Shown here in pieces: positions 30,342-63,670 of a stretch of 64,000 nt of DNA (the stretch's first letter is position 1; every line of letters begins with the position of its first letter). The stretch spans positions 2,065 through 66,064 of the forward strand of contig DATKKG010000061.1 of assembly GCA_035543015.1 (NCBI GenBank). Reading direction: 5' to 3'. The position numbers were made by a program, and so were the translations under genes. This DNA comes from Conexivisphaerales archaeon. GTDB taxonomy: Archaea; Thermoproteota; Nitrososphaeria; Conexivisphaerales; DTJL01. The notes beneath the pieces are model-generated. The model saw only the letters and a program-made list of their open reading frames with translations. It was not told the origin of the DNA and did no database searches.

Positions 30342-30419
30342 TGGTGCGAGGCGCGGGATTTGGACCCGCGTTGCCACCTTGGGAGGGTGACGTCCTAGAC
30401 TAGGCTAGACCAGCCTCGC
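30342..30419 (-). tRNA. tRNA-Gly (anticodon CCC), CCA encoded
   Basis: Hand-folded cloverleaf. Acceptor GCGAGGC/GCCTCGC. D stem GTCT/GGAC. Anticodon stem TCACC/GGTGG with loop CTCCCAA. T arm GCGGG-TCCAAAT-CCCGC. Discriminator A, then CCA. Confidence 0.9.
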
Positions 30420-46900: not shown

Positions 46901-47043
46901 TGGAAGCGGGAAAGGCGGAGCTCGAGAGACTGGCTCGAAGACGGAATGGCAGGCGCAGATGGAGGTCCTAGTCAGGCGGCATTGTGGAGGACGCCCCCGA
47001 GCGTACGCCTCGGGATCTCTTATCCGGACTTCCGGGCACTCCG

Positions 47044-47901: not shown

Positions 47902-47963
47902 AGGAGCTGCTGAGGACGGTTTATCCCCGTTTCCGGCCCTCTCCTTGCCAGAGGAACGGAAAG

Positions 47964-49243: not shown

Positions 49244-49285
49244 GGTAGCCTTCCGTGAACATCATTCATATATGCAAAGGAGCAG

Positions 49286-49774
49286 ATGCAAGCCAAGAGG
49301 CCAATCATCGATTTGGCGAGTCCAGCACAGGTCTCCAAGTATGCCGTCGCGTTCGTAGTTGCGGGCGGAGTGATATGGGTGGCCGGCGCGATTCTCTATA
49401 GCGTCCAGATCGGTTCCTGTTTCTCGTGCGCTTCTGCTGTGGTAGGTCCTGGGGTGAACACTTCGACTTTCTCTCCAGCTGCCATCCGCAACCTGGCCTG
49501 GGATGGCCTCTACGCCAACCTCTACGTGGCCACGGTAGGGCTGCTCGCTATCGCCATAGGCCTCAGGGCTTTCAGGCGTGGCGAGACTTGGTCCTGGTAT
49601 GCGGTAGCGATCTTCGCGGCGAGTGGAATCCTGACCGCCAAGCTTGACGAGGCGAGCTGGGGAGGCTGGTATACGTTCATCTTCCTCGGCCTCCCGCCAC
49701 TCCTGGGGCTGACGCCGTCCGCAGGCAGCTTCTTGAGAAGGGCACCTCGCACGCGGACTCTCAAAGGGGCCTAG
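49286..49774 (+). CDS. membrane protein, unknown function
   Basis: 162 aa, 4 hydrophobic segments. Confidence 0.6.
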   Translation: MQAKRPIIDLASPAQVSKYAVAFVVAGGVIWVAGAILYSVQIGSCFSCASAVVGPGVNTSTFSPAAIRNLAWDGLYANLYVATVGLLAIAIGLRAFRRGETWSWYAVAIFAASGILTAKLDEASWGGWYTFIFLGLPPLLGLTPSAGSFLRRAPRTRTLKGA

Positions 49775-49905
49775 TTCTGCCGAACCATCATTCAGACATT
49801 GAGCGGCGCCAACCTCTCCCACGATTTCCCGAGAACCCCCTGGCAGATGGATAGGATGGCGCTCGAAAAGGTCGGTTCTAGTTACAGCCGTGGGAGGGAG
49901 TCTTA

Positions 49906-49917
49906 TATACTAGTATA
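49906..49917. promoter_or_regulatory. perfect 12-bp palindrome TATACTAGTATA upstream of vapB (candidate operator/TATA)
   Basis: Self-complementary 12-mer ending 12 nt before the vapB ATG. Confidence 0.4.
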
Positions 49918-49929
49918 CCCTTATACCGC

Positions 49930-50148
49930 ATGAGTGAATTGACGGAATCGACCACCGTGAAGGTGTCAAAGGAGACCGTGAGGAGGCTCGCCGCCCTCCA
50001 GCGGAGCCTCCACGCTAGAAGCATGGACGAAACGATAGCGATTCTGGTGAGACGGCGGAGGAAGGAGGCGCTCGACGCGGCCTTCGGGAGCGACCCGACG
50101 GCTTCGAGGAGCTTCACGGAGGAGGACCGCCTTGAAGACCGTAGTTGA
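49930..50148 (+). CDS. vapB: VapB-type antitoxin (ribbon-helix-helix-like)
   Basis: 72 aa. TTVKVSKETVRRLAALQ N-terminus. Overlaps vapC by 17 nt. Confidence 0.7.
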   Translation: MSELTESTTVKVSKETVRRLAALQRSLHARSMDETIAILVRRRRKEALDAAFGSDPTASRSFTEEDRLEDRS

Positions 50149-50542
50149 TTCCTGGGCCTGGGTGGAGCTGTTCAAGGGGAGTGCGGCGGGGAGGAATGCA
50201 AAGGAGCGAATTGAAGAAGCAGACGACGCGTTCACTCCAAGCTTGGTCCTTGCAGAGTTGGCTGGGAAGTACTTGAGAGAAGGAGTCGACCCCGCCGTGA
50301 CGCGTCGGTGGCTCCAGACGATATCCGAATCCACAGAGGTAATTGGAATCGACATCGACCTTGCACAGATGTCCGCAAAGGCTTCAATCGAGCTGTACGA
50401 AAAAGCGCGATCCGAGGGTATCAGAAGACCCGGCCTCGGTGATGCGATAGTGTTGGCCACCGCAAGGAGCTGCCAGGCGCTGGTCCTGACTGGTGATCCC
50501 CATTTCAAAGGCTTGCCTGAGACCTCGTGGCTCGAGGGTTGA
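50132..50542 (+). CDS. vapC: PIN-domain toxin VapC
   Basis: 136 aa. VVDSWAWVE, LAELA, GLGDAIVLATA, and LTGDPHF acidic PIN positions. Confidence 0.88.
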   Translation: MKTVVDSWAWVELFKGSAAGRNAKERIEEADDAFTPSLVLAELAGKYLREGVDPAVTRRWLQTISESTEVIGIDIDLAQMSAKASIELYEKARSEGIRRPGLGDAIVLATARSCQALVLTGDPHFKGLPETSWLEG

Positions 50543-50615
50543 AGGTCCAAGGGTGTCTTGGCCCTACCCTCAGCCGCTCAAAGTACTCTCAGCGCCCGTA
50601 TCTGTTCAGCCCATC

Positions 50616-50640
50616 TTCGCGGGCCCAAGCCCACGCCCAA
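50616..50640 (+). repeat. intergenic motif copy 1 (TTCGCGGGCCCAAGCCCACGCCCAA)
   Basis: Member of the six-copy family TTCGYAGGTCCAAGCCCACGC. Shares the upstream CAGCCCAT with copy 3. Confidence 0.8.
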
Positions 50641-50836
50641 GAGAGGAAACCCAGGCAGCATGGCGCCCGACCTAGCGTAGCCTCGGAAGTCTGTATCCGT
50701 TTCGACCGTAAGGTGGAAGCAAAGATAGTTCTGAGCTTGTCTCGAAGGGGGTCCAGATTCGCGAAGTGAAGGAAACGCAGAATCCTTAAGAGAGGTTATC
50801 CCAACAAATCATTCTCAAAGAAGGAGAGCGCGACAA

Positions 50837-51145
50837 TTGGCTATTGGGATCTATATCGTTATGGGAGCAATCCCAATTGTTATAGTCTTCATAGCATCCG
50901 GGCTATTGCTCGGAAGGAGAGGTCGCGGCAGATTAGTCGAGTGTCCAGAGTGCGGAGCTCAATTCAAACGGCCAGCCTACGCCGAGAAGCCGGTTGGGTT
51001 TGGACCAGGGTTGCCAAGCACAGGAGGAGAATTCACGTGCCCAAAGTGCAAGTACAGGGCCAATACCTCTAGCTTCAGGTACGTGAACGAAAAGGAGAGC
51101 AATCCCAGCGTAGATAGCCCGGCTCAAAGAGGGCGTTACCCATGA
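50837..51145 (+). CDS. membrane-anchored zinc-ribbon protein coupled to the ABC transporter
   Basis: 102 aa. N-terminal hydrophobic helix, CPECG...CPKC. Its stop overlaps the ABC ATPase start (ATGA). Confidence 0.6.
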   Translation: MAIGIYIVMGAIPIVIVFIASGLLLGRRGRGRLVECPECGAQFKRPAYAEKPVGFGPGLPSTGGEFTCPKCKYRANTSSFRYVNEKESNPSVDSPAQRGRYP

Positions 51146-52098
51146 CATCTCCTGCTCCCGCGATTGAAACGGTTGGGCTCACCAAGCGGTTCGGCGACCT
51201 TACCGCGGTCGACAGCGTGACCCTCCGCGTCGAGCAAGGCGAGGTCTTCGGGTTCCTTGGACCCAACGGGGCGGGAAAGACCACGACAATCAGGATGCTC
51301 TGCTGCCTGATATCAAAAACCAGCGGAGAAGCGAAGATTGCCGGCTATGATGTTGGCAAGGATGCGGATTCACTGAAGATAAGGAAGCTAATCGGGTTGG
51401 TACCGGACAACGTGGGCCTCTACGACGACCTGAGCGCCTACGACAACTTGGACTTTTACGGCAAGCTGTACGACTGCCCGGATGCCCAGCGGAAAGAGAA
51501 TATCCAGCGATTCCTGACGATGCTGGGCCTCTGGGAGAAGAGGGACGTCATGGCCGGGACCTACTCCAAGGGGATGAAGCAGAAGCTCGCGATCGCGCGT
51601 GCCCTCATACATGAGCCAGAGCTCCTCTTCATGGACGAACCCACGGCCAACCTGGACCCGGAGTCCGCCAAGACGGTCAGGGATTTCATCCTCGAGCTGA
51701 AGAAAGAGAAGAGGACCATCTTCCTCAACACGCACAACCTGGACGAAGCCCAGAGGATATGCGACAGGATTGGAATCCTGAACACCAAGCTCATCGCGAC
51801 GGGCACTCCGCGGGAGCTCGAGAGGGCGCTGAGCAGCGGTGGAGGCACCAGAACGACAGTTGTGCTGCTTCAGGAGCAAGCGACGGATGCGATGCTGGCG
51901 GGATTGAGACAGCTATCGGGGAACGTCACGACGGAAGGGAACAAGCTGACGATCGAGCTGAAGGACCCTGAGAAGCAGAACGCCGCCGTCATCGCGGCGA
52001 TAGCCAAGGCCGGAGGACACATCGAGTCCGTGACAATCGCCGGCGCCTCACTTGAAGACGTATACCTGAAGCTGGTGAGGGAAGGAGGGGGGAGTTAG
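51142..52098 (+). CDS. ABC transporter ATP-binding protein (ABC-2 exporter type)
   Basis: 318 aa. Walker A GPNGAGKTT, signature YSKGMKQK, Walker B LLFMDEP. Confidence 0.93.
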   Translation: MTSPAPAIETVGLTKRFGDLTAVDSVTLRVEQGEVFGFLGPNGAGKTTTIRMLCCLISKTSGEAKIAGYDVGKDADSLKIRKLIGLVPDNVGLYDDLSAYDNLDFYGKLYDCPDAQRKENIQRFLTMLGLWEKRDVMAGTYSKGMKQKLAIARALIHEPELLFMDEPTANLDPESAKTVRDFILELKKEKRTIFLNTHNLDEAQRICDRIGILNTKLIATGTPRELERALSSGGGTRTTVVLLQEQATDAMLAGLRQLSGNVTTEGNKLTIELKDPEKQNAAVIAAIAKAGGHIESVTIAGASLEDVYLKLVREGGGS

Positions 52099-52102
52099 GA
52101 GC

Positions 52103-52846
52103 GTGCGGCTCTCCAAGGCCTGGATCATAGCTGCAAAGGACTTCAAGACTTACCGCAAGAAGAAGAACATCATGTATTCGTTGGTCGCCGTTCCGCTTCT
52201 CATCGCCATTCTCATCCCCGCAGTCATAGGCTACATCGGCCAGAAGAACACCAGCCGCACCTCCCCTGCCGAGCTGATGGTCCTGTTACCTGCGTTCCTC
52301 TTCTTCTACGTCATTCTTGGATCGTATCTATCTACTCCGATAGCATCGTACACCATCGCTGGCGAAAAGGTCGAGAAGAGCCTCGAGCCGCTCCTCGCGA
52401 CGCCCACGACCGACAGCGAGATCCTACTCGGAAAGGGGATAGCTGCCTTCTTTCCGCCTCTAGCCGCGGTGCTGGGAGGATCCGCACTCTTCATGCTTCT
52501 CATGGACCTGACCACCAAGGACAAGCTTGGTTACTACTACTTCCCGAACTGGAATTCAGCCATCGTTATACTCTTGCTTCTTCCGCTCGCGTTGTTGATG
52601 AGCGTACAAATGAACGTAATCGTGTCCTCGAGGGTGACCGACATCAGGTCTGGACAACAACTCGGAGCGCTGACGATGATTCCGTTTTTGGGGTTGTATG
52701 TCGCCGGGGAGCTCAAACTGATCGACCTCGGAGACACCAGCAACCTGCTGATGATCGCCGGAGCCTTGCTCGTGGTGGACGTGGTGCTCTTCTTCGTTTC
52801 GAGAGCGACGTTCCGCAGAGAGGAGATACTGACAAAATGGAAGTAG
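52103..52846 (+). CDS. ABC-2-type transporter permease
   Basis: 247 aa, 6 hydrophobic segments. Directly follows the ATPase. Confidence 0.8.
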   Translation: MRLSKAWIIAAKDFKTYRKKKNIMYSLVAVPLLIAILIPAVIGYIGQKNTSRTSPAELMVLLPAFLFFYVILGSYLSTPIASYTIAGEKVEKSLEPLLATPTTDSEILLGKGIAAFFPPLAAVLGGSALFMLLMDLTTKDKLGYYYFPNWNSAIVILLLLPLALLMSVQMNVIVSSRVTDIRSGQQLGALTMIPFLGLYVAGELKLIDLGDTSNLLMIAGALLVVDVVLFFVSRATFRREEILTKWK

Positions 52847-53208
52847 GCGCCCCAACTTCGAAACCGGTCCAAGATTTGGACGGCGCAAATCTCTTTTATA
52901 TTCCGTCATCTTTCGCAAGACGCATGGCCAAATCCAGTTTCGAAGTAGGAGAGAAGGAGAAGCACACGCTTACAGTAGATCTTGACTGGGTAATGAAGAG
53001 AATCCTCATCGAGCTGGACGGAGAGAAGCTGGCCGATGAATACTACTACTCGCTCGGTGCGAAGACATGGTCTTTCGACGTAGGAAGCTCTGAGGTACAC
53101 AAGGTCGAAGTCAGACTAGGAATGACTTTGCCCCTACTCGCAATTGTAAAGAGAAGGGAAGTGAAGGTGCTCGTGGACGGGAAGCCAGCACGGAGTTCGA
53201 GCGCCTGA
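52837..53208 (+). CDS. hypothetical protein
   Basis: 123 aa ORF overlapping the permease stop by 10 nt. The start may be the internal Met (MAKSSFEV). Confidence 0.45.
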   Translation: MEVGAPTSKPVQDLDGANLFYIPSSFARRMAKSSFEVGEKEKHTLTVDLDWVMKRILIELDGEKLADEYYYSLGAKTWSFDVGSSEVHKVEVRLGMTLPLLAIVKRREVKVLVDGKPARSSSA

Positions 53209-53251
53209 AACTGAGGATATGGCGCTATGCAGCACTGATGCGTCGATCTGA

Positions 53252-53285
53252 CTGAAGATGACGAGCATCTCTCAGTCATCTTCAG
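53252..53285. other. 11-bp perfect inverted repeat (CTGAAGATGAC / GTCATCTTCAG, 12-nt loop)
   Basis: Read directly from the sequence. Lies between ORF 52837..53208 and the histidine-kinase remnant. Confidence 0.6.
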
Positions 53286-53310
53286 GTTGTTGGAAACAAT
53301 GGGTTGATTC

Positions 53311-53451
53311 GATGAGGGCACGGGCCTCGGGCTGGCAATCTGCAAGAGGCTCGCGGAGGCCCGCCACGGCACGATCTCCGTGAAGAGCGAGCTTGGAGAG
53401 GGGACAACCTTCGCGCTTACGTTTCCTCTCAGGCGGTACCCTGCCGGCTAG
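53311..53451 (+). pseudogene. histidine kinase remnant (C-terminal HATPase_c G2 box only)
   Basis: Hand translation gives [40 protein letters not shown]. An in-frame TGA lies immediately upstream, and the H, N and G1 boxes are absent. Confidence 0.65.
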
Positions 53452-53846
53452 GAGGCTCTCATGTTGGAGGGTCCTGCGCAGCCACAGGTAGAACTCAAAT
53501 GCGCGAGAGGAAGAGCCGGAGGCCGCCATCGTCGCAACGCGAGCAGTTGAAGGATCACCTCCCGGTCAGACCCTTCCATGACGGCCTATCCCCCCCAACC
53601 GTGCCAAAGGGAAGCGGCGATCGACGAAGCGTAAGGCACTTTGTGAACTCTTGCCCAGGCTGAGATAATCGGAGGAAAGCGACCTGTTGCGCAGTCAATT
53701 CTGACATGTCGGATGTGTATCGCTCGGTTGGGCACACGACATATGGGCTTCTGCGACATAGAGTTGAGCCATTTCAGAATCGGGAATGACGAGGCTGCTC
53801 AGGAGCCCGAAGCTTATATCTCAGCGGCGCCTCAGCCAGCACCGAG

Positions 53847-54401
53847 ATGTCAGACGAGAGAGATCCCTCCTTCGAGAGAGCTGTGACTCTGCTCATTTCT
53901 GCACTGCACATTGAGGGCCCAATGGGGGACCTCGCCCTAGCTCAGCTCATCCTCCTTGGAGAGAGATGCAGATCCCATGTGGTCTCGTTCCTGGAGGAGG
54001 AGCTTTCACTGAGGGAGGATTATAGGAGGCTCTACGAGGAGCTCGCCAAGAGTGGTGGCGTGGTCTCTCCCGTGGACCGCAAGCTGCTGGCCGAGATGGT
54101 AGCCAGGCATGGTTTCGTCGGCGAGGATGGAACCCAGAAGCAGTTCAACGCCGCCGACGTGGAGCTGCACGGGAAGGAGCTCCTCGGAGGGTACGACTAC
54201 GCCTACCAGCCTCGCGGCTACATATCAGCAGTCCAGCGGTGCTGCGACCTCCTGGGCCTGTTGGGCGACCCTGAATCTCTCGATGTCTTGGAGAGGATCG
54301 ATAGCGCGCTGGGAGACGCGGTCCCTCAGGCCCGCCAGGCGATCGAGAGGCTGAAGCCGAGCGGCAACCACGCCCAGCAGTCAAGTCCAGCTGGCCGATG
54401 A
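53847..54401 (+). CDS. helical-repeat hypothetical protein
   Basis: 184 aa, Leu/Glu-rich helical composition. No motif. Confidence 0.55.
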   Translation: MSDERDPSFERAVTLLISALHIEGPMGDLALAQLILLGERCRSHVVSFLEEELSLREDYRRLYEELAKSGGVVSPVDRKLLAEMVARHGFVGEDGTQKQFNAADVELHGKELLGGYDYAYQPRGYISAVQRCCDLLGLLGDPESLDVLERIDSALGDAVPQARQAIERLKPSGNHAQQSSPAGR

Positions 54402-54511
54402 GGACTCCTTGATAGGTCTCGCAGCCCAGGAGCTCTATTCGCCTCCACCGTAAGATGAAAGCAAAGATATGTGCCCCATCTCATCCATATGAGAGGAGCA
54501 TGAGACGCGGT

Positions 54512-55255
54512 CTACTTCGAGGTCTCGGTGGGCTCGCCGGGCTTGGATACCCTGGCGACGTAGGCGTTGATCTCCTCTTCCGTCAGCTTCCTCATTTCCT
54601 TCGTCTTGACTTCCACCACGGCCATCTTGATGTGCTTCGGCTCGGCCTTGTCCTCCCCGCTCTTGCCGATGCTCTCCACCGCCAGCAGGCAGGCGGCATC
54701 CAGGGACATCTTCTTCGAATACTTCTGCTCGAGGAGCTCGTTCACCTGGTCGCCTCCGCCTCCTATGGCGATGGCGTCGTAGCCGAGATACGTGCCGCTG
54801 GGGTCCGTCACGAATATCGACGGGCCGTTCTTGTCGACTCCCGCGACGATCAGCGAAACGCCGAAGGGCCTCACGCCAGCGTACTGGGTGAACTGCTGTG
54901 CAGCGTCACCGAGGTGGCGAGCTATGGCCTCTACGTCGATCGGCTCGTCATAGATCAGCCTGTTGTTCTGGGCCTGAACCCTGGCCTGGTCGACCATGAC
55001 GCGGGCGTCGGGCACGTAGCCCGCGGCCGCTATGCCTATATGGTCGTCCACCTGGAAGAGCTTCTGGCTCAGATCACCGTTCTGAAGCTTCCTTACGCGT
55101 TCTTCTGCACAGAGCACTACGCCTTCCTCGCATTTGATCCCAATGGCGAGGGTCCCTCTCCTCACCGTCTCGATGGCATACTCGACCTGATAGAGACGGC
55201 CGTCGGGGGAGAATATCGTCAGAGCCCTGTCGTATCCTGCTGATGGAGCAAACAT
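54512..55255 (-). CDS. psmA: proteasome subunit alpha
   Basis: 247 aa. YDRALTIFSPDGRLYQVEYA N-terminal signature. Confidence 0.96.
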   Translation of the reverse strand: MFAPSAGYDRALTIFSPDGRLYQVEYAIETVRRGTLAIGIKCEEGVVLCAEERVRKLQNGDLSQKLFQVDDHIGIAAAGYVPDARVMVDQARVQAQNNRLIYDEPIDVEAIARHLGDAAQQFTQYAGVRPFGVSLIVAGVDKNGPSIFVTDPSGTYLGYDAIAIGGGGDQVNELLEQKYSKKMSLDAACLLAVESIGKSGEDKAEPKHIKMAVVEVKTKEMRKLTEEEINAYVARVSKPGEPTETSK

Positions 55256-55363
55256 TACGAATACTCACCGACTTACTCTGGCTAGAAAATCGGGTCTTTT
55301 TAACTCTTTTTGGAATTAGCGACCAAGCGTTTAAGACCTCCTAAAGTCACTCCAGAATGAACC

Positions 55364-56392
55364 TTGAAGCCCATTCTCTGGGAACAGGGCTCGCTTCGGG
55401 TCCTGGACCAGCGGCTGCTGCCGACGAGGAAGGTGTGGCAAAACGTGGATTCGGCGAAGGAGGCGCATGATTTCATCCGGGACATGGTGGTGAGAGGGGC
55501 GCCGCTGATTGGAGTGGTGGCCGCTTTCGGTGTGGCCCTGGAGGCTAGGCGGCTCCGTGGCGGGGACCCAGCGGATTTCAGGAGGAAGCTGGATGATGCC
55601 GCCCAATTCATCTCTTCGGCGAGGCCGACCGCCGTCAACCTCGCCTGGGCGGCTGGGATGGTGTCGCGCATCGCAGGGGAGGAGGCCTCGGTGAGCTCCA
55701 TGAGGGAGAAGGCCCTCCAGGTCGCCGTCTCGATAATGGAGAGGGAGAGGGAGATGAGCAGGAGGATAGGGCAGAACGGCGCCGAGCTGATCGTTGACGG
55801 CGACACGATCATGACTCACTGCAACGCCGGCGCCCTGGCCACCGTGGAGCTTGGCACGGCGCTGGCCCCGGTCAGGGTCGCCGTCGCCCAGGGCAAGCAG
55901 GTGAAGGTGATCGCCACGGAGACGAGGCCTGCCCTTCAGGGTGCCAGGCTCACCGCCTTCGAGCTGATGGAGGACGGTATCGATGTGACGCTGATCTGCG
56001 ACACCATGGTGGGGATCACAATGGCCAGGGGGATGGTCGACAAGGTCTTCCTTGGCGCCGACAGGGTGCTGGCCGACGGGACCGTCTACAACAAGATCGG
56101 AACTTACCAGGTGGCCGTCTTGGCGCAGCGTCATGGCGTGCCCTTCTACTCCGTCTTCCCTCAGTCGACCTTCGATTTCAAGAGCAGGGCGGAGGATGTC
56201 AGGATCGAGGAAAGGAGCCCGGACGAAGTCACGATGATAAGGGGAAGGCGGATCGCCCCGAGGGGGGTCAAGGTCTTCAACCCGGCCTTTGATGAGACGC
56301 CGCCGGAGCTCGTGACAGGGTACATAACGGACCGCGGGGTCGAGCGGCCGCCCTTTGCAAAAACAGCAAGCCTCGGGATGGATTCAAGGTAA
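55364..56392 (+). CDS. mtnA: methylthioribose-1-phosphate isomerase / aIF-2B-I family protein
   Basis: 342 aa. LRVLDQRLLP and MVVRGAPLIG motifs. TTG start. Confidence 0.78.
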   Translation: MKPILWEQGSLRVLDQRLLPTRKVWQNVDSAKEAHDFIRDMVVRGAPLIGVVAAFGVALEARRLRGGDPADFRRKLDDAAQFISSARPTAVNLAWAAGMVSRIAGEEASVSSMREKALQVAVSIMEREREMSRRIGQNGAELIVDGDTIMTHCNAGALATVELGTALAPVRVAVAQGKQVKVIATETRPALQGARLTAFELMEDGIDVTLICDTMVGITMARGMVDKVFLGADRVLADGTVYNKIGTYQVAVLAQRHGVPFYSVFPQSTFDFKSRAEDVRIEERSPDEVTMIRGRRIAPRGVKVFNPAFDETPPELVTGYITDRGVERPPFAKTASLGMDSR

Positions 56393-56477
56393 TAATGGTC
56401 GATAGCAGCCGTCCGATTCAAATAACAACAGTAACCAAGTAACGCTATTAAGGCGCCCGTCGCATGCTTCGGGTGGT

Positions 56478-57593
56478 TTGTCGGCAAGCGCGATTCATAG
56501 GGGACTCGAAGATGTCGTCACCGGCGAAAGCAGGATTTGCTACATAGACGCCATCAAGGGGACTCTTCTCTACCGAGGCTACGACGTCGAAGAGCTCGTC
56601 CAGAAGTCCACCTACGAGGAGGTGGCCTACCTCCTCCTCTACGGGAACCTGCCGAAGAAGGCCGAGCTGGACAGGTTCAAGCTGGAGCTCTCCAACAGGT
56701 GCGCCGTGCCCAACCAGGTGCTCACGATCATAGGGAGCTTCCCGGCGGACAGGAACGCCATGGATATGCTCAGGACCGCCGTTTCGGCTCTGTCGCTCTA
56801 CGACGTTGTCCCCAACGACCCGTTGAAGCAGAGCATGTCGATCGTCGCCAAGATGCCGAACCTGATATCTGCGGTGTACAGGCAGAAACAGGGCGAATGG
56901 TTCGTTCCCTTGCGCAAGGACCTGTCGCTGGCTGCGACCTTCCTCTACTCGAGCTACGGGACCGAGCCGGACCCGCAGGACGCGAAGGTGCTGGACGCGC
57001 TCCTCATACTTCATGCCGATCACGAGCTGAACGCCTCGACCTTCGCAGCCCGCGTGGCAGCTTCGACCCTGTCAGACGTCTACTCGTCGTTCGTCAGCGC
57101 CATCGGAGCGCTAAAGGGCTCGCTGCACGGCGGGGCCAACCAGCAGGCCTTCGAGATGCTGGAGGAGATCGGCGAACCGGGCAGGGCGGAGCAGTACGTG
57201 CTGGCGAGGCTGGCCGAGAAGAAGAAGATCATGGGATTCGGCCACCGCGTCTACCGCCTCCAGGACCCGAGGGCTGCGATAATGCGCAGGTTCCTGGAGG
57301 ACATCTCCCGGAGGAAGGGGAACACCACCTACCTCATGATAATCGACGAGCTAGAGAAGGTTATGAAGAGGGAGAAGGGCCTGTACTCCAACCTCGACCT
57401 GTACACCGGCTCCATCCTCCACCTTCTTGGCTACCCGTCGTACATGGACCCCCTGTTCTTCGCCGTTGGCAGGTCGTCGGGGTGGCTCGCCCACATACTC
57501 GAGCAGTACCAGGACAACAAGATCATACGCCCGAGGGCGGAGTACGTCGGCGAGATGTACCGTCCCTACACCGCGATTGAGAAGAGGACGTAG
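56478..57593 (+). CDS. gltA: citrate synthase
   Basis: 371 aa. LILHADHELNAST and GFGHRVY active-site blocks. TTG start. Confidence 0.93.
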   Translation: MSASAIHRGLEDVVTGESRICYIDAIKGTLLYRGYDVEELVQKSTYEEVAYLLLYGNLPKKAELDRFKLELSNRCAVPNQVLTIIGSFPADRNAMDMLRTAVSALSLYDVVPNDPLKQSMSIVAKMPNLISAVYRQKQGEWFVPLRKDLSLAATFLYSSYGTEPDPQDAKVLDALLILHADHELNASTFAARVAASTLSDVYSSFVSAIGALKGSLHGGANQQAFEMLEEIGEPGRAEQYVLARLAEKKKIMGFGHRVYRLQDPRAAIMRRFLEDISRRKGNTTYLMIIDELEKVMKREKGLYSNLDLYTGSILHLLGYPSYMDPLFFAVGRSSGWLAHILEQYQDNKIIRPRAEYVGEMYRPYTAIEKRT

Positions 57594-57611
57594 AGACAGA
57601 CCAGCGTATTT

Positions 57612-57619
57612 CTTTTAAG
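57612..57619 (+). promoter_or_regulatory. TATA-like box (CTTTTAAG) for tRNA-Arg
   Basis: The T/A run ends about 25 nt upstream of the tRNA 5' end. It may also serve as an oligo-T terminator for gltA. Confidence 0.4.
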
Positions 57620-57643
57620 CCCACGGATGAGTAGGGAGCCTGC

Positions 57644-57736
57644 GGGCCCGTCGTCTAGCTTGGATTAGGACGCTGAATCGAGAGATGCGCAAGCCTTCGG
57701 AGCCGGAGATCGGGGGTCCGAATCCTCCCGGGCCCG
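57644..57736 (+). tRNA. tRNA-Arg (anticodon UCG) with 17-nt non-canonical intron (57676-57692, between positions 29/30)
   Basis: Acceptor GGGCCCG/CGGGCCC. D stem GTCT/GGAC. T arm GGGGG-TCCGAAT-CCTCC. Removing 57676-57692 gives anticodon stem CTGGC/GCCGG and loop CTTCGGA. The splice sites sit in a hand-folded bulge-helix-bulge motif. No CCA is encoded. Confidence 0.8.
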
Positions 57737-57846
57737 CTAAACCTTTCAAGAAAGCAGACCATATTATGCAAATCGCATGTCATCCCAGTTCGTTGCCCAA
57801 AAACGCCATCGTCCACCTCTGACTTCATCAGACTTCCTAAGTTTAG

Positions 57847-57870
57847 TCGTAGGTCCAAGCCCACGCCCCA
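57847..57870 (+). repeat. intergenic motif copy 2 (TCGTAGGTCCAAGCCCACGCCCCA)
   Basis: Family member, ending 47 nt upstream of ORF 57918. Confidence 0.8.
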
Positions 57871-57917
57871 GCCTTCCCCTTTGTCAAAACTAATAGGTTG
57901 GGAACTCCTCTCTGACC

Positions 57918-58409
57918 ATGATGGCTAAGCGATTCCAGCTTGTAATTGTCGTGGCATTGGTCGTCATCTTCTCTGTAGCAGCAGCGTATGACTTCATAGC
58001 TGCTCAGGCCCCACCGTCGAACCAAGAGAAGGTCGACACCTGCGCCACGAAGATGACCTTCAACGGCACGGTGTATTGTTCGTTTGATGTTACAGGCTTC
58101 ACCACGGTGAGTAACCAGGGCTATGCTAACATGAATCATCCCGTCGACTTCATGGGAGTGCTTTTTCAGACGATCTGCCCTTATGGCTACGATGGCTGTC
58201 CGAATCCTGGGACTGTGACGACCGTCACCAGTTTAGGCGTTGTTCAGATGAACCTGACTTTCGCAGATAGGAGGAGCGAAATGGTCTCGGTTGTCTTCGG
58301 CGACGATATCCCGCCTCCAGTCCTTTCCAAGCATTCAAATCCTGTGGCAGGGTTCGAGATTCTTGGACCATATGACTCGTTGAAGCTTGTTCTCCTGGTC
58401 CAAGCATAA
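57918..58409 (+). CDS. N-terminally anchored/secreted Cys-containing protein, unknown function
   Basis: 163 aa. Hydrophobic N-terminus FQLVIVVALVVIFSVAAA. Confidence 0.65.
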   Translation: MMAKRFQLVIVVALVVIFSVAAAYDFIAAQAPPSNQEKVDTCATKMTFNGTVYCSFDVTGFTTVSNQGYANMNHPVDFMGVLFQTICPYGYDGCPNPGTVTTVTSLGVVQMNLTFADRRSEMVSVVFGDDIPPPVLSKHSNPVAGFEILGPYDSLKLVLLVQA

Positions 58410-58438
58410 GCGGGTTGGCTTCCACGACAGCCCATTCA

Positions 58439-58463
58439 TTCGCAGGTCCAAGCCCACGCCCAA
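58439..58463 (+). repeat. intergenic motif copy 3 (TTCGCAGGTCCAAGCCCACGCCCAA)
   Basis: Family member, ending 42 nt upstream of ORF 58506. Followed by an ATAAAAG TATA-like box. Confidence 0.8.
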
Positions 58464-58505
58464 AGAGCATGAGATAAAAGGGCGGGTGACTAACCGCGAT
58501 TTGAC

Positions 58506-59339
58506 TTGAGAAGGGCCTACGTCGTTGGCGTGGCTGTAGGTGCGATTCTAGCCGCTGTCCTTCTCCTTACAGTCCTTCAGTCCTACCCTCCCGCTTCCTC
58601 GACAGTCTTCAACCTGACAGTAGGACAGGCGATATCACACAGAGCTGAATTACAGGACCCTTCGGGAATGACGGACTTTGTCGCGAATGAAACGTTCCCC
58701 ATCACGGTTGTTTCTCCCAAGTCCACCGACGTAGAATTGGACATCACCGGTCTTCCGGACTCCGCCTGGGCATCGCTGAGCACAAACACGCTCAGAAACG
58801 TTGGCCCTAGTGGCAAGGCCGCGATCCTGACGATCTTCGGCGCCATAGCTGACAGCGGAGGACCTGGTGGGGCACCTACTTACAATGTCACAGTGACAGC
58901 CCATGGTGCGGACGGTTCCTTATCCCAAGTCGGTTTCAGCGTGATCGTTCCTGTACCCCTGACCGTCCTTCACCAGCCCGGTCCCCTGAATATCACTTGG
59001 ATAGAGCCTTGGAGAGCCAGTCAAAGTGGGCCGTCTTACACGCTCTGTGGAGCCGTATACGACCCCCAGACCACCTCCTCCGGGTCCCTGCCTGTGGAAT
59101 TGACACCTTTGGGAATGGTCAACGGGAGCCAGATTATGCCTCTCCCATCATGGATAGCATTTACGTGGCCCGTTCAAGTGACGAAGCTAGAAGCTGAGAT
59201 GCCCATTTACTTCGAAACGGAAGCCTTGCTCAACGGCGCCCCTGTTGGAGCCTACACCTTCGCTTTTGGCGAGGAGATTGGTGGCGTGGCTTTTGTGTTC
59301 AATGTAACGATGGATATCATTCCCCCCATACCAACCTGA
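58506..59339 (+). CDS. N-terminally anchored extracellular protein, paralogous to the C-terminal half of ORF 59554
   Basis: 277 aa. Anchor VVGVAVGAILAAVLLLTVL. Shares blocks with 59554..61056 (VGPxG..IL, VYDP, P(L/F)PSW, AP(V/L)G, (I/V)PP(I/V)). Confidence 0.7.
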   Translation: MRRAYVVGVAVGAILAAVLLLTVLQSYPPASSTVFNLTVGQAISHRAELQDPSGMTDFVANETFPITVVSPKSTDVELDITGLPDSAWASLSTNTLRNVGPSGKAAILTIFGAIADSGGPGGAPTYNVTVTAHGADGSLSQVGFSVIVPVPLTVLHQPGPLNITWIEPWRASQSGPSYTLCGAVYDPQTTSSGSLPVELTPLGMVNGSQIMPLPSWIAFTWPVQVTKLEAEMPIYFETEALLNGAPVGAYTFAFGEEIGGVAFVFNVTMDIIPPIPT

Positions 59340-59466
59340 GCTACCGAAGAGTTTCGGGATTGTGATTACCGAGAAGTCGGAGCCCGGAAACTCATACAGG
59401 TCGCAGGAGTCTGGATTTGTCAGAGAACGGGACCACCCAGACTGATAGCCCAAAGATCTATCCTCG

Positions 59467-59487
59467 TTCGCAGGTCCAAGCCCACGC
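59467..59487 (+). repeat. intergenic motif copy 4 (TTCGCAGGTCCAAGCCCACGC)
   Basis: Family member, ending 66 nt upstream of ORF 59554. Followed by a GTATAAGAAA TATA-like box. Confidence 0.8.
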
Positions 59488-59553
59488 GCTGAACCGTCTC
59501 ACATCGCTTCGTATAAGAAAGGGCAGCTTCTGTTGAATGTATGACGTGATGGT

Positions 59554-61056
59554 ATGGACAGGATGGGAGTTGGAAAGGTACTCACTGCTTGCTTGGTAGC
59601 CCTACTTGTTCTTGGAACATTGACTCTAGTACAAGAGATAACCCTACAGCAGGAGTTGAAATCACAGCAGGATACCATTGACTCTCTCAGGAACCAACTG
59701 AAGCAGCAGGCAGACGTCATCGCGAACCTGACAGCGGCGCTCAAGTCTCAACCCATTCAGATTGCCTATGGCTTCGACTCATCCTCGCTAGAGCTGGTCG
59801 CGACCACCCTTACCCCTGTCATCCAGCAGGGAGACAACGTGAGCATTCGTGTCAAGGTGTTCAACCCTCTGGACTACGGCCTCCAAGCGAGCGCATACCT
59901 GGAGTCCACCTCTCTGGACACCTGTGGCAACCTCTCGCCCGTTGACTTGGAGGCGTATTTCGGCAACTACACCCTGGACAACATCCCCGACGTCTATCCA
60001 CTCCTGCTCAGCTACGGCGCTGCCAATCCCGACTACTACTGCCCGCCTGCAGGCGACAACTACGTTGGCTACACCTTCTATCCTCACAGCGACGTAGCCT
60101 TGGCCCACTCGGAGCTCTACAATTACACGGCCCTGGCGGAGGTGCAAAGGACCTTCAACGCGACCGGCGACTACGTGTATGGATATGACCCCTCCACTTC
60201 GTATTACGGCAGCATCTACCAGAGCTTCCAAGTGGGGACGTATACCGTCCTCGCCTCCGACGTCTGGGGCCACCAAGCGCTATGTTACTTCCGGGTAGTC
60301 GCGACAGGACCCGTGCCGCCGCTTTCGATCGCCCTAGCGGGAGTCGGGCTGAATACCACTTCGTTTACCATCGGCTCGGCCTACTCCTCGTTCCCTGGTT
60401 CAGAGGACCTGTCTCTGTCCATATGGGCTCAGTCTGCCGCTCACGTTCACCTGTCCATGGAAGGCATGATGGACGGCGTCTGGTTCAAGTTCAAGCCGGC
60501 AGAGCTGTCTTCCGTGGGACCCGAAGGGGCGTCTTCTATCCTCGAAGTGGCGGGGGCGGTAATCCCGATGGGGGGAAACGGCAATTGGCCAGAAGTCACG
60601 ATTGTGGCATACGATGACGCAGGGGATTCTGCCAAGCTGAACATCACCTTGACGTATGATGTCCCGGTGACGATTCTCAGGTCCCCCTCCGTCATCCCGC
60701 CTGTGACATTTGACAGCTACCCGGACCGGGTAGGCGCTGGGCAGTACGGCGGCAATTACTACGGAGTAGTCTACGACCCCATCTCAGGCGGCGCGGAGCC
60801 GACGCTCACCGTCAACCTGAGCACCCTAGGCATACTCGTCAACGGCACTGTGCAGCCATTTCCCTCTTGGCTTCAGGATTCAATCCCCCTAGCACCATTC
60901 GTCTTGTCGGAAGGAGTGCCCTACTACTTCTTCGCCGGCGTCAAGGTCGGCGACGCGCCTCTAGGCAACTTCACGGTCGCCATGAGAGAGACGGTCGGGG
61001 GAATGGACTTCATGCTTTACATCAACTACACCGTAGTGCCTCCAGTCAGGACCTGA
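59554..61056 (+). CDS. large N-terminally anchored extracellular protein with coiled-coil stalk
   Basis: 500 aa. Anchor LTACLVALLVLGTLTL, then a Gln/Leu heptad-like stretch, then beta-rich domains. The C-terminal ~200 aa are homologous to ORF 58506. Confidence 0.75.
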   Translation: MDRMGVGKVLTACLVALLVLGTLTLVQEITLQQELKSQQDTIDSLRNQLKQQADVIANLTAALKSQPIQIAYGFDSSSLELVATTLTPVIQQGDNVSIRVKVFNPLDYGLQASAYLESTSLDTCGNLSPVDLEAYFGNYTLDNIPDVYPLLLSYGAANPDYYCPPAGDNYVGYTFYPHSDVALAHSELYNYTALAEVQRTFNATGDYVYGYDPSTSYYGSIYQSFQVGTYTVLASDVWGHQALCYFRVVATGPVPPLSIALAGVGLNTTSFTIGSAYSSFPGSEDLSLSIWAQSAAHVHLSMEGMMDGVWFKFKPAELSSVGPEGASSILEVAGAVIPMGGNGNWPEVTIVAYDDAGDSAKLNITLTYDVPVTILRSPSVIPPVTFDSYPDRVGAGQYGGNYYGVVYDPISGGAEPTLTVNLSTLGILVNGTVQPFPSWLQDSIPLAPFVLSEGVPYYFFAGVKVGDAPLGNFTVAMRETVGGMDFMLYINYTVVPPVRT

Positions 61057-61246
61057 ATGCTACAGTCTCGAAGCGGATCTGCGTCGCCATAGCCTAAGGA
61101 ATCCTAGGGACGGCGCTGTCGGCCGGTAGGTTGTTGACGTATTCTCCACCCTGGCTAAGGTAGCTCGAGACATTGGAGACCGGAACCACCTGCTATCTCC
61201 GAGCAGCTCTAGGCTCGTACTCCGACCGCCTCAGCCTGACTATTCT

Positions 61247-61275
61247 ATTGCTTTCAATAGTATGAAGATGATTTA
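61247..61275 (+). repeat. AT-rich repeat R copy 1 (ATTGCTTTCAATAGTATGAAGATGATTTA)
   Basis: Related to the copies at 62325 and 63441. Lies 20 nt upstream of motif copy 5. Confidence 0.65.
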
Positions 61276-61294
61276 GACTCATCCTCATCCCTTC

Positions 61295-61311
61295 TTCGCA
61301 GGTCCAAGCCC
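61295..61311 (+). repeat. intergenic motif copy 5, 3'-truncated (TTCGCAGGTCCAAGCCC)
   Basis: Family member lying between two convergent genes, with no co-oriented gene downstream. Confidence 0.75.
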
Positions 61312-61366
61312 TTTGGAACTAGTTGTTGATAGATGCCGAATCCCTCCCGACCCGGCCACACCCCCT

Positions 61367-62185
61367 TTATCTCAGATAATCGATGTATCTTGTTGCCGAC
61401 CTTTGGACAGCGCGGTCGGCGCCACCAACGACTTCCCTGCCTTCGAATCCACTGTAAAGCTCTTCAAATTCGTAAGGTCTGATTCGCGACGCGATCGCCC
61501 TGACCGTGCGTGCAGGGAGAGGAATGAGGTTTGGAAAGCTGTGCATGAAGCTCACCCACTTTCGGTCCATGACTACGTAGATTGTGTCGCCTGTCAGGAG
61601 AACGCCTTTCCCTGCGTCATCTGGACGCCAGTATAGCACACTGCTGCCATCGAAGTGCCCTCCTAGGTCTATCAACTCCAGCCCAGCCAGAGGAGACGTC
61701 TTCCTCCCTTTCCAGTAGGTGATCTTCTCACCTTTCCTCTGTGCCCACTTCCTATCCAGCTCGTGCAGGAACACCGGGATCCCTCCGAAGGCTTCGCTCC
61801 ACTCCAAGAACGACCCATAAAGGTGGGGATGCGACATCGCGATGGCGTCGATCCCACCCAGATCTCTGATTATCGAGATAGTGGAATCATCCAGGTAGGT
61901 TACGCAGTCCCATAAGAGATTCCCGAGTTTCGTTTGAACCAGAAACGCCCTCTGACCTATGGCGAAGGGGGGATTCGTGATTATCTGGTGAAGCCCGGCT
62001 CTCACTCGTTCGACCCTGTTTCTGAATCCGCGCCGTCTCATCTCTTCGAGGCTAGTCCATTGCTGGCCTTCCCAGCCAACGTACTGTCTGTCGTTGGTGC
62101 AGATTGGGCAGACGCGTGGGGGTCGTCTGGAGTCACCAAACTGAACTCCACAGGTCTTGCAAACGTATTTCGTCATTAGATTCAC
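61367..62185 (-). CDS. MBL-fold hydrolase-like protein with N-terminal zinc ribbon
   Basis: 272 aa. CKTCG...CPICT ribbon. AMSHPHLYG is a degenerate HxHxDH motif. Confidence 0.75.
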   Translation of the reverse strand: MNLMTKYVCKTCGVQFGDSRRPPRVCPICTNDRQYVGWEGQQWTSLEEMRRRGFRNRVERVRAGLHQIITNPPFAIGQRAFLVQTKLGNLLWDCVTYLDDSTISIIRDLGGIDAIAMSHPHLYGSFLEWSEAFGGIPVFLHELDRKWAQRKGEKITYWKGRKTSPLAGLELIDLGGHFDGSSVLYWRPDDAGKGVLLTGDTIYVVMDRKWVSFMHSFPNLIPLPARTVRAIASRIRPYEFEELYSGFEGREVVGGADRAVQRSATRYIDYLR

Positions 62186-62297
62186 AACCCGCTTTCCCTG
62201 TCCCCTCTCAAAGTGGGCTCTATCTGGGGAATGGACTGCGTGAATTAAAGGAGTCGTGAGAATCCACCTTCCGAAACCATCAAATCAAGGCCCCACA

Positions 62298-62310
62298 GGG
62301 CCCGCTAACC
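62298..62310. repeat. direct repeat of the tRNA-Arg 3' end (GGGCCCGCTAA-CC)
   Basis: The 11-mer GGGCCCGCTAA is identical to 57730-57740 (acceptor 3' strand plus trailer). Confidence 0.5.
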
Positions 62311-62324
62311 GGCCTCACTCTCGT

Positions 62325-62366
62325 TCAGTTAGCCAGTTGTTCTCAATAGGATAGAGATGATTATCT
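62325..62366 (+). repeat. AT-rich repeat R copy 2
   Basis: TCAGTTAGCCAGTTGTTCTCAATAGGATAGAGATGATTATCT. 37 of 42 positions are identical to copy 3, with one indel. Confidence 0.75.
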
Positions 62367-62380
62367 TCACGGCTCGTTTC

Positions 62381-62401
62381 TTCGTAGGTCCAAGCCCACG
62401 C
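62381..62401 (+). repeat. intergenic motif copy 6 (TTCGTAGGTCCAAGCCCACGC)
   Basis: Family member, ending 29 nt upstream of ORF 62431. Confidence 0.8.
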
Positions 62402-62430: not shown

Positions 62431-63147
62431 TTGGGAGATAGTCATGACGGACATACTCTCGATACGTTACGCTTTTTAGACAAAGACGGCTACTTTAGTC
62501 CGTTAGACATGCCGGCGCCCACCTCAGAAAGTGATTCGGTCGAAGCTCTAGTAGAGGAAATCTCAAGGAATCTTGAGGCATGGGTCAAAGCTGCCAAGCA
62601 AAGAGCCATCAGCGACGCCCTTGGCGAGGCTGCATTCATAGCCGCCGTTATCGCCCTTGGTGTCTGGGTCGGGCTCTACAGCCTTCTGATCGACATGACG
62701 GGAAATCTGCCGAATTCAGAACTTCATCTTTTGCTGACGGTCTCCATTTCGCTGGCCGTGGGAGCCGTGGTCTACTACTGGAAGTACTCACGAAGAGCCA
62801 GATACATCAAAATGGAGGTGAGTCTGAAGCGGTTGAAAGCTGGAACTCAAGCTTCAAGGCTCGAAGATGCGATGCTTGCGCTGGACAGCTTGATTGCTTC
62901 ATTCCCTGAAATAACAGCTCAGATGGGTGATGACGTATGGTACTATGCGGGCCTCGCGTTCACAATTGGGCTCTTCTTGGGAGGCATCTTCCCGTTTGGC
63001 ATCCTCCTCGGCTTCTTCTTGGGAGGTTCAACTTGGATTTATTTTAGCAGAAAAGCCATTGTCCGGATGAGGAGGGAGGTTGAGAAGTACAAAGGATGGA
63101 GCTCTAGGCTGAACCAGCAGAGGGATTCCTTCCTCAGGGACATGTGA
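62431..63147 (+). CDS. four-segment membrane protein with charged C-terminal helix (module partner of the wHTH gene)
   Basis: 238 aa. Two hydrophobic pairs and a C-terminal RMRREVEKYKGWSSRLNQQRD. Same architecture as 25877..26662. The start may be the ATG at 62444. Confidence 0.65.
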   Translation: MGDSHDGHTLDTLRFLDKDGYFSPLDMPAPTSESDSVEALVEEISRNLEAWVKAAKQRAISDALGEAAFIAAVIALGVWVGLYSLLIDMTGNLPNSELHLLLTVSISLAVGAVVYYWKYSRRARYIKMEVSLKRLKAGTQASRLEDAMLALDSLIASFPEITAQMGDDVWYYAGLAFTIGLFLGGIFPFGILLGFFLGGSTWIYFSRKAIVRMRREVEKYKGWSSRLNQQRDSFLRDM

Positions 63148-63425
63148 GAGAGATGGACAAACCAGACCTCTATGTTCTAGCCAGGTTCCTGGGTGTGCTT
63201 TATTCCAGCGGTGGACCCATGAAGAAGACGAACATTCAGACTTCTATCGGCCTCAGCTATCCTCGGTTTATCGAGTATCTCGAATGGATGGAAGCCCATA
63301 GTCTTGTTTCAAGGACGATAGGCGGCGATGGGTCCGAGCTGGTGGACCTGTCGTCCAAAGGGCTCGACCTCTACGTTAGGCTCTTTGAATGGATTCGGGA
63401 TGCGATGAAGGGGCCAGAACGATAG
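63144..63425 (+). CDS. small winged-helix DNA-binding protein (HTH_45-like)
   Basis: 93 aa. GPMKKTNIQTSIGLSYPRFIEYLEWMEAHSLV. Paralogue of 26655..26933. 4-nt overlap with the upstream gene. Confidence 0.7.
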   Translation: MREMDKPDLYVLARFLGVLYSSGGPMKKTNIQTSIGLSYPRFIEYLEWMEAHSLVSRTIGGDGSELVDLSSKGLDLYVRLFEWIRDAMKGPER

Positions 63426-63440
63426 CTCCGCCCAGCTCTC

Positions 63441-63483
63441 TCAATTAACCAATTGTTCTCAATATGATAAAGATGATTAATCT
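63441..63483 (+). repeat. AT-rich repeat R copy 3
   Basis: TCAATTAACCAATTGTTCTCAATATGATAAAGATGATTAATCT. Contains the 7-bp inverted repeat CTCAATA...TATTGAG. Confidence 0.75.
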
Positions 63484-63670
63484 ATTGAGAGCCCTACCTC
63501 AGCCTCAGCGAAACCTTGAGCCTACAGCTAGGGCAATTAACTGACATGATTACCCCACGCGTAACTTAGAGACTTATAATATCAGATCACACCTTATCGC
63601 TTTGCTATGGTATCAGGGGTCTGACGAACCTCTGAATCTAGTGTTGATATATCCGTGACGGAAACGTTAA

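Follow-up and report, generated by a model that had tools for sequence, protein, structure and literature searches.

A co-oriented 23-bp motif as a possible junction of mobile gene cassettes in soil and peat Conexivisphaerales

A 64,000-nucleotide stretch of contig DATKKG010000061.1 (assembly GCA_035543015.1) from a Conexivisphaerales archaeon, called the window here, carries a 23-nt motif with the consensus TTCGCAGGTCCAAGCCCACGyCC, which occurs in spacers of the plus strand as five full copies and one truncated copy. The best reading of the motif is that modules delimited by it form chromosomal arrays in a soil and peat clade of Conexivisphaerales. Judged from sequence comparison, recombination junctions of mobile gene cassettes could have the motif as their conserved core, the cassettes holding one to three genes and each carrying a promoter of its own. 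We see this proposal as evenly poised between right and wrong.

Anatomy of the motif and its arrays

A pattern search with the 21-mer TTCGYAGGTCCAAGCCCACGC, allowing up to two mismatches, finds the five full copies of Table 1, where 100 shuffles give an expectation of 0.00. A preliminary description of the window, made from its letters, had listed six same-strand copies in spacers, one of them 3'-truncated and lying between convergent genes, and the search agrees except that copy 2 starts at 57846, not 57847. The same description had placed exactly one gene in each interval between copies 2 and 6 (three on the plus strand and one metallo-beta-lactamase (MBL)-like gene on the minus strand) and TATA-like boxes behind copies 2 to 4. 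Both statements hold, with intervals of 593 (not 592), 1028, 1828 and 1086 nt and motif-to-promoter distances in the window of 12, 20, 25 and 72 nt. No copy lies within the first 50 kb of the window.

A scan for the exact motif over one genome per GTDB species found it in only three metagenome-assembled genomes (MAGs) from peat and soil, one labelled Conexivisphaerales and two Nitrososphaerota, each with several copies spread over several contigs; four single bacterial matches are near the calculated chance figure of 2.2. The motif-bearing species are JBEKZX01, CAVYVS01 and CAWJIE01, in addition to the genome of the window. Metagenomes from JGI, again of peat and soil, supplied 65 more loci, and neither the motif nor the M3 junction described below was found in viral contigs. 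The source metagenomes include SPRUCE peat, Microflora Danica and ERZ27256600. The comparative material is all metagenomic and fragmentary. With up to four mismatches, the total is 222 copies at 76 loci (numbered with the prefix L) in 450 kb, where about 0.1 would be expected by calculation.

Enrichment in spacers, one of the checks that had been proposed, is present. All 56 loci with two or more copies have uniform motif orientation (2^-146 if orientation were random) independent of gene strand, and 210 of the 222 copies (95%) are intergenic. Spacing has a median of 758 nt, with 10th and 90th percentiles of 402 and 2245 nt. The units between copies hold a single plus-strand gene (51), a single minus-strand gene (35) or no called gene (28), and a few hold several genes. 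Of the genes within units, 118 run in the direction of the motif and 66 (36%) against it, while the gene next after the motif is reversed in 82 of 195 cases (42%), the motif then adjoining its stop codon. Outside an 86.5-kb ENA metagenome contig closely related to the window, genes were called with our own codon-usage caller, which reproduces the ENA calls that it was trained on.

Ahead of a co-oriented gene, the motif ends at a distance of 45-130 nt from the start codon, and co-oriented unit genes have their own TATA-like boxes 20-40 nt ahead of the start codon. Among 70 cases with a co-oriented next gene, TATA-like words come after the motif in 12, compared with 1 among 50 cases with a reversed next gene. 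Because these words depend on a co-oriented next gene, the promoter is that of the gene rather than of the motif.

A logo built from 172 non-redundant contexts displays a sharply bounded block with 20 near-invariant positions and random flanks (beyond 23-30 nt); a weak gCCCAtt box lies upstream at a variable distance of a few bases. The shared logo suggests that purifying selection acts on the copies as a unit. Several familiar classes of element were considered and rejected. A coding sequence would have its frame broken by the variable spacers and indels, and the intervals of 260-2500 nt containing genes do not fit a CRISPR array, with its spacers of 25-50 nt. The random flanks, the lack of a palindrome and the single orientation per contig do not fit a miniature inverted-repeat transposable element or a repetitive extragenic palindromic (REP) repeat. 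A structured RNA finds no support in Rfam, which gives no match at the motif copies, or in RNAalifold, which gives no pairs for M3. A Xer/dif site has 28 bp with two 11-nt inverted arms and a 6-nt spacer, and the consensus is without dyad symmetry.

Breakpoints and exchange of units

All-against-all comparison of the loci yielded 52 distinct internal homology breakpoints. It was found that 20 of them lie within 20 nt of the motif in both partners, compared with 9.8% under an intergenic-position null (binomial P = 3e-8), and among pairs at least 95% identical the motif accounts for 8 of 12. Loci L005 and L034, for example, are identical through motif position 20 and unrelated beyond it. The 716-nt unit of L034 recurs, 97% identical, in L038 between neighbours that are unrelated on both sides, and a 419-nt unit with the motif at both borders is common to L068 and L074. 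Copy 1 of the window is itself a breakpoint, as 90% homology to a peat contig (L036) stops 2 nt after it.

A unit present in one strain and absent from another was found in L046 and L065, which come from strains about 99% identical and differ by one 336-nt unit between two direct copies. The unit consists of a diverged motif copy, the promoter CGCTTCGTATAAGAACG with its TATA box, and a 71-aa open reading frame. In a second strain pair, L047 and L063, a unit has been replaced. The variation of whole inter-motif units among strains or MAGs that the preliminary description had set out as a check is therefore found, in these two pairs and in the recurring units. A systematic search for indels between collinear contigs gave two events only.

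Seven junction pairs share only one flank. In six of the seven, a small number from which to draw, the differing bases at positions 1-6 track the left flank and those at positions 7-21 the right flank; in the seventh (L034/L038) the motif is identical in both partners and uninformative.

The ABC-transporter unit occurs in circularly permuted form. Between two motif copies of L016 (945-3355), and likewise in L012, L046 and L065, the order is 118-aa gene, ATPase, permease, and at 50637-53238 of the window it is ATPase, permease, 123-aa homologue, without a motif-bearing joint. Such a permutation would result if a circular form had re-inserted, or if a tandem duplication had been followed by a deletion.

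Cargo and companion motifs

Unit families include ABC and MFS transporters, thermopsin, a DUF2807 adhesin-like protein, a CAAX protease, an exosortase-like protein and NHL repeats, together with many orphans. A transmembrane-like segment is present in 58% of unit genes, compared with 27% of the genes that lie over 3 kb away from every motif copy (Fisher P = 0.001). Unit genes also have a lower G+C content than genes far from the motif (0.547 and 0.576, P = 9e-6) and a lower codon-usage score.

Two companion motifs, M2 and M3, occur co-oriented at a subset of joints. M2 has the consensus caATTAACCtaTTGTTTTCAATAACAyAAAGATGA, and in its long form the core TTGTTTTCAATAACAyAAAGATGA stands between direct repeats of ATTAACCTATTG. 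M2 points the same way as the main motif in about 50 instances, and two exceptions were seen. M2 may act as a promoter or as a module for protein binding. A C/D-box small RNA was rejected by eye, the C box being absent, and a single match to an M2 fragment in a viral contig (L094) was set aside as a chance match in AT-rich DNA.

M3 has the form GCTAGGGCATTTAAC-N9-AACCCCACGCGTAACTT and continues either into cagcccatt and the motif or into AAAGACTTATAATATC; it has an AAsCCCACGC box in common with the main motif, and RNAalifold found no conserved RNA structure in it. The form that continues into AAAGACTTATAATATC stands past the last motif copy in 7 of 7 loci (window 63527-63583, L058, L065, L068, L082, L089 and contig Ga0335070_10001461, a reverse-complemented join of L051, L033 and L043). 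Because of this the arrays have a defined 3' end module. The DNA beyond it is motif-free: in L082 it consists of core genes, in Ga0335070_10001461 it is an integrase insert, and in the window it extends for 5.1 kb.

Proposed mechanism and the points against it

Under the cassette reading, a site-specific recombinase acting in trans would pair two motif copies. Recombination between direct copies would excise the intervening module as a circle, and the reverse reaction would insert the circle at any resident copy, so that the copies would stay in the same orientation regardless of the direction of the cargo genes. The exchange point would lie in or at the 5' part of the motif. We infer all three of the recombinase, the circular intermediate and the exact exchange point. 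Excision and insertion at direct repeats would account for the strand-independent polarity, the cassette-sized spacing, the breakpoints on the motif and the unit present in one strain and absent from the other. The leading guess for the enzyme is a tyrosine recombinase akin to the integrases that target tRNA genes in these genomes, because the motif resembles the T-arm/acceptor segment of a tRNA.

Of the readings that had been put forward for the array, a cassette platform is thus the one best supported, by polarity, unit size, breakpoints and the present/absent unit; an integron proper, which had been its model, is not, as neither an attC fold nor IntI was found. A fuller version can be spelled out, namely a non-integron cassette-capture system with an asymmetric, sequence-defined 23-bp site, M2 and M3 boxes, an array-end module, envelope-related accessory genes and a novel recombinase, possibly strand-specific or replication-coupled. 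We offer it tentatively, as a genuine possibility about which doubt prevails.

Several results weigh against a cassette junction. No recombinase recurrently linked to the arrays came to light when the genes of the window and about 185 proteins of the 76 loci were scanned with Pfam. The logo consensus has no dyad symmetry, which known core sites of tyrosine and serine recombinases have, and no common single-stranded DNA hairpin was found in 101-nt stretches around six copies on both strands (z -2.7 to +1.5), where an attC-like fold of the motif with its flanks had been envisaged. Between the window and sister contigs about 99.7% identical to it (the ENA contig and L056) there is no gain or loss of units, only clustered point differences. 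The L046/L065 junction falls in a 5-nt identity, AAGCC, 9 nt upstream of the motif and outside it, so the exchange point is inconsistent among the examples, and homologous or microhomology-mediated events could still be responsible. Homologous ABC-transporter units are found in either orientation relative to the motif. Co-orientation also extends across core genes or gaps of more than 3 kb, in five pairs and in L013/L014, 50 kb apart, which hints at a chromosome-scale polarity that local integration by itself does not explain.

Two integrases were considered as the enzyme and rejected. The sole Phage_integrase protein of the loci, in L051, lies inside a 9.5-kb motif-free insert that splits a 17-copy array, and its relatives are at most 42% identical and located elsewhere; it is non-recurrent and belongs to a separate insert. 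The tyrosine integrase at 28757-30079 of the window is in no other array locus. The preliminary description had reported no recombinase within the array or before the window end, which holds for the array but not for the window as a whole, given this integrase, and the search beyond 64 kb that it suggested gave none that recurs in array loci. IntI was not found in the Pfam scans of the window and loci, where the IntI-specific domain itself was not examined and the genomes are incomplete, so its absence is not proven.

Alternative explanations

The main rival, which we consider unlikely, sees in the motif a polar sequence that binds protein or organises the chromosome and has some other primary role, for instance as a boundary or silencer of acquired genes or in replication or repair, and treats the mosaicism as a by-product of homologous or microhomology recombination at repeats. 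It would suit a motif that lacks both dyad symmetry and a linked recombinase, and a co-orientation that spans core genes and long gaps (7.2 kb between window copies 1 and 2, 4.7 kb in L080, 50 kb in L013/L014). The L046/L065 junction outside the motif points the same way, and the direct repeats of an AGCCCA(CGC) box at junctions (in M3, the upstream gCCCAtt and the motif) fit cooperative protein binding. Set against this, 21-23 bp is short for efficient homologous recombination, yet 20 of the 52 breakpoints fall on the motif. The copies also cluster in variable, low-GC, cassette-like stretches and are missing from the window's first 50 kb, and no archaeal polar signal of such length or density (about one per kb) is known.

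There is less to be said for a cis-regulatory site, an upstream activating site or operator of a transcription factor governing a regulon of envelope or exported proteins, which had been among the earlier suggestions and which we think improbable. The position of the motif just ahead of a TATA-like box before co-oriented genes, the richness of the units in membrane and exported proteins, and the retention of the motif across species before homologous genes, as in the 277-aa family of the window and L005, are what a regulon would lead one to expect. The proposal is disfavoured by the large share of next genes that are reversed, by a polarity that is uniform per contig whatever the gene strand, and by the restriction of TATA-like words to co-oriented genes, which makes the promoter that of the gene. 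The distance to the promoter is variable, 12-72 nt in the window, and 20 near-invariant positions over 172 contexts are atypical of factor sites.

tRNA-derived sequences and tRNA-bounded islands

The array of the window begins 106 nt downstream of a tRNA-Arg gene, close to the 110 nt or so estimated earlier. The gene reads as tRNA-Arg(TCG) once an internal stretch is deleted, as established from intron-deletion variants and cross-species comparison; neither ARAGORN (with and without introns) nor the Rfam tRNA model calls a tRNA at 57644-57740. Its position behind citrate synthase is kept in relatives, where only the internal stretch of 11-18 nt varies. This intron lies in the anticodon-stem region; each related lineage has a different intron sequence between conserved exons.

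The 14-nt 3' end of tRNA-Arg, CCTCCCGGGCCCGC, recurs about 11.5 kb downstream, outside the window. On the ENA sister contig two further plus-strand motif copies lie about 4.7 and 5.1 kb past the window end, and beyond them is a 70-nt tRNA-like fragment whose 3' end, CCTCCCGGGCCCGCyAAAC, repeats that of tRNA-Arg. Because of this repeat, copies 2-8 are seen to sit in a tRNA-bounded island of about 11.5 kb (57644 to ~69259), with a G+C content of 0.52-0.57 compared with about 0.61 and the 14-nt tRNA repeat at its borders. No integrase was found inside it. The fragment (L002 4646-4715, ~5.2 kb past the window end) begins with GGGCCC, finishes with CCTCCCGGGCCCGCCA, is preceded by an M2 motif at promoter distance and is not called by ARAGORN or Rfam; it is likely the right border (attR) of the island.

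A second island of this kind, at 23513-30419, is an element integrated at tRNA-Gly(CCC) (30342-30419, minus strand). It carries a 440-aa tyrosine integrase (28757-30079, minus strand) and orphan genes, has a G+C content of about 0.51, and shows the 14-nt direct repeat of the tRNA 3' end, CGCGCCTCGCACCA, at 23513; no motif copy lies inside it. A gene pair for a membrane protein and a winged-helix protein (HTH_45) occurs both in this element (25877-26933) and in unit 5 of the array (62431-63425), the two winged-helix proteins being 46% identical (E = 3e-20). The shared pair connects the cargo of the arrays with integrative elements.

Aligned with the T-arm/acceptor 3' segment of tRNA-Gly(CCC), the motif agrees at 17 of 21 positions, a resemblance noted at the outset and reproduced here as non-random (the score is reached by 8 of 5000 shuffles and by 0 of 4000 random window pieces), whereas its match to the adjacent tRNA-Arg is at chance level (1474 of 5000 shuffles). 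Because the tRNA-Gly match exceeds chance, a tRNA-derived origin of the site, or its use by tRNA-targeting integrases, is possible. Elsewhere, fragments resembling a tRNA 3' half (T-loop and acceptor, one ending in CCA) follow degenerate motif copies or array ends, at L047 3130-3245, L014 5600-5650 and Ga0335070_10001461 14350-14385.

A further suggestion had been that each copy is a decayed att scar, the remnant of a tRNA-derived site left by serial integrations of tRNA-targeting elements. The tRNA-Gly likeness, the two islands with 14-nt tRNA 3'-end repeats and the tRNA-3'-like fragments adjoining array ends in other loci accord with it, and Thaumarchaeota are known to have short att sites, to use tRNA targets and to undergo tandem integration (PMC8371274). 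We nevertheless find it very unlikely, as the adjacent tRNA-Arg matches no better than shuffles, independent decay would hardly leave one sharp consensus in 172 contexts, the consensus is unlike any functional T-arm with stem positions that no longer pair, the units of 0.3-2 kb have no integrase remnants, and the real att repeats here are the last 14 nt of tRNAs, outside the segment that the motif matches. The suggestion thus falls in the form first given, and what survives of it is the tRNA-Gly likeness and the island bounded by the tRNA-Arg repeat.

Genomic setting and features of the window

In relatives whose citrate synthase is 83-93% identical, the block of exosome, SBDS, proteasome, aIF2B, citrate synthase and tRNA-Arg genes is kept, and the gene content downstream of tRNA-Arg differs in every related lineage; the syntenic locus of these relatives has no motif copies. 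The proteasome alpha gene in relatives (L018, L022, L028) is directly preceded by the SBDS and exosome genes. At that spot the window (46500-54500) has motif copy 1 along with a 184-aa gene, the ABC unit and PIN-domain genes, which makes a second motif-associated break in synteny.

The 86.5-kb ENA contig belongs to a different assembly and shares 99.68% identity with the window. Their 56 differences are clustered at 48388-48397, 53203-53523, 54426-54485, 61853-61991 and 63543-63569, which suggests short recombination or gene-conversion tracts between co-existing strains. A 37-nt direct repeat, CTsTATyCGyyTCsACCGTAAGrTGrAAGCAAAGATA, 81% identical, occurs in two unrelated spacers (50691-50727 and 54433-54469).

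The features of the array are listed in Table 1. The products of the first three unit genes each have a hydrophobic N-terminus (3 of 3). The Lactamase_B match of the unit 4 product has E = 9e-4, under the curated Pfam cut-off, and an exact-protein look-up of the 93-aa winged-helix gene gave no match.

Table 1. Motif copies, companion motifs and genes in and around the array of the window
Feature	Position	Strand	Remarks
Motif copy 1, TTCGCGGGCCCAAGCCCACGCCC	50616-50638	+	74 nt past a PIN-domain gene; ABC-transporter unit downstream
tRNA-Arg(TCG) gene with non-canonical internal intron	57644-57740	+	Left border of the island with copies 2-8
Motif copy 2	57846-57868	+	Located by pattern search
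Unit 1 gene, 163 aa	57918-58409	+	Hydrophobic N-terminus; no Pfam family
Motif copy 3	58439-58461	+	TATA-like box 12 nt downstream; same motif-gene arrangement in a SPRUCE MAG (L005)
Unit 2 gene, 277 aa	58506-59339	+	Orphan, exported or membrane-anchored; paralogue of the unit 3 gene
Motif copy 4	59467-59489	+	Followed by CGCTTCGTATAAGAAAG (TATA-type promoter)
Unit 3 gene, 500 aa	59554-61056	+	Exported orphan; its family is the largest in the arrays (17 members)
M2 copy a, TTGyTTTCAATAnnAyrAAGATGA	61247-61273	+	Companion motif
Motif copy 5, 3'-truncated	61295-61311	+	Flanked by convergent genes
Unit 4 gene, 272 aa	61367-62185	-	Weak MBL-fold match and N-terminal zinc ribbon; reversed relative to the motif
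M2 copy b	62320-62363	+	17 nt before motif copy 6
Motif copy 6	62381-62401	+	Located by pattern search
Unit 5, membrane protein (238 or 212 aa) and 93-aa winged-helix protein (HTH_45)	62431-63425	+	
M2 copy c	63436-63493	+	Form with ATTAACC.ATTG direct repeats
M3 (GCTAGGGCAATTAAC..ACCCCACGCGTAACTT) joined to AGAGACTTATAATATC in place of the motif	63527-63583	+	Array 3'-end module

Comparison with known systems

Among systems that build chromosomal arrays from single genes, only integrons are, to our knowledge, well understood. If the cassette reading is true, the arrays described here would be a second cassette system with a different mechanism, and array-based gene capture would have evolved more than once. 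It would also explain how little-known soil and peat archaea diversify their cell-envelope repertoire, and it may provide a new recombinase specific for an asymmetric 23-bp target. Even as a polar chromosomal signal, the motif would be a 23-bp, perfectly co-oriented element at about one copy per kb, for which nothing comparable has been described in archaea.

REP sequences and bacterial interspersed mosaic elements are short, lineage-specific and highly repeated in intergenic DNA; they have a palindromic sequence, are found in either orientation and do not mark the borders of shuffled gene units. The motif resembles them as a short lineage-specific intergenic repeat and differs in being non-palindromic, in having one orientation and in delimiting units.

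Tandem elements at archaeal tRNA genes, discussed as 'gene capture' (She et al.; Krupovic et al. 2019, reviewed in PMC8371274), resemble the arrays in their setting. The main array likewise adjoins a tRNA gene and is bounded by tRNA repeats, the window has a second such island with an intact integrase, and the motif is T-arm-like. Those cases, however, are plasmids and proviruses of several kb, each with a tRNA-derived att, whereas the units here are of 0.3-2 kb and have no integrase, the repeat differs in sequence from the adjacent tRNA, and arrays also occur away from tRNA genes. A tRNA-derived att repeats part of the adjacent tRNA, as the 14-nt CCTCCCGGGCCCGC and CGCGCCTCGCACCA do and the motif does not.

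The dif modules of Acinetobacter plasmids (pdif, recombined by XerC/XerD; PMC6449649, PMC13141974) are also small accessory modules bounded by a short site and shuffled between replicons. Their recombinase gene is not inside the module, the 28-bp pdif site being served by a host enzyme in trans. The pdif sites are dyad-symmetric and the flanking pair is mutually inverted, whereas the motif has no dyad symmetry and all its copies are direct. Nor does the motif match the dif consensus of archaea, which has a 6-nt spacer between two 11-nt inverted repeats (PMC8371274).

There is also a likeness to integron arrays and clusters of attC sites lacking integron integrases (CALINs), including those of archaea (Ghaly et al. 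2022, PMC9668308). Both consist of tandem, short, mostly single-gene units with a recurring site, and the sites are co-oriented and less than 4 kb apart, as in the 56 loci with two or more copies and a median spacing of 758 nt. In both, units recur in other contexts and may be present or absent between two sites, the cargo is diverse and largely of unknown function, and most arrays have no neighbouring integrase. The differences begin with the site: attC is an imperfect inverted repeat of 55-140 nt that folds as single-stranded DNA, whereas the motif is a 23-bp, non-palindromic, sequence-conserved element. Integron cassettes are generally promoterless, co-oriented and served by a common Pc promoter, whereas the units here have their own TATA boxes and 36% of their genes are reversed. 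Unlike integrons, the arrays number several per genome, with core genes interspersed, and IntI was not found with them. In archaea only canonical attC/IntI integrons have been reported (PMC9668308). The system described here works like an integron or a dif-module system and yet falls outside both as they are defined.

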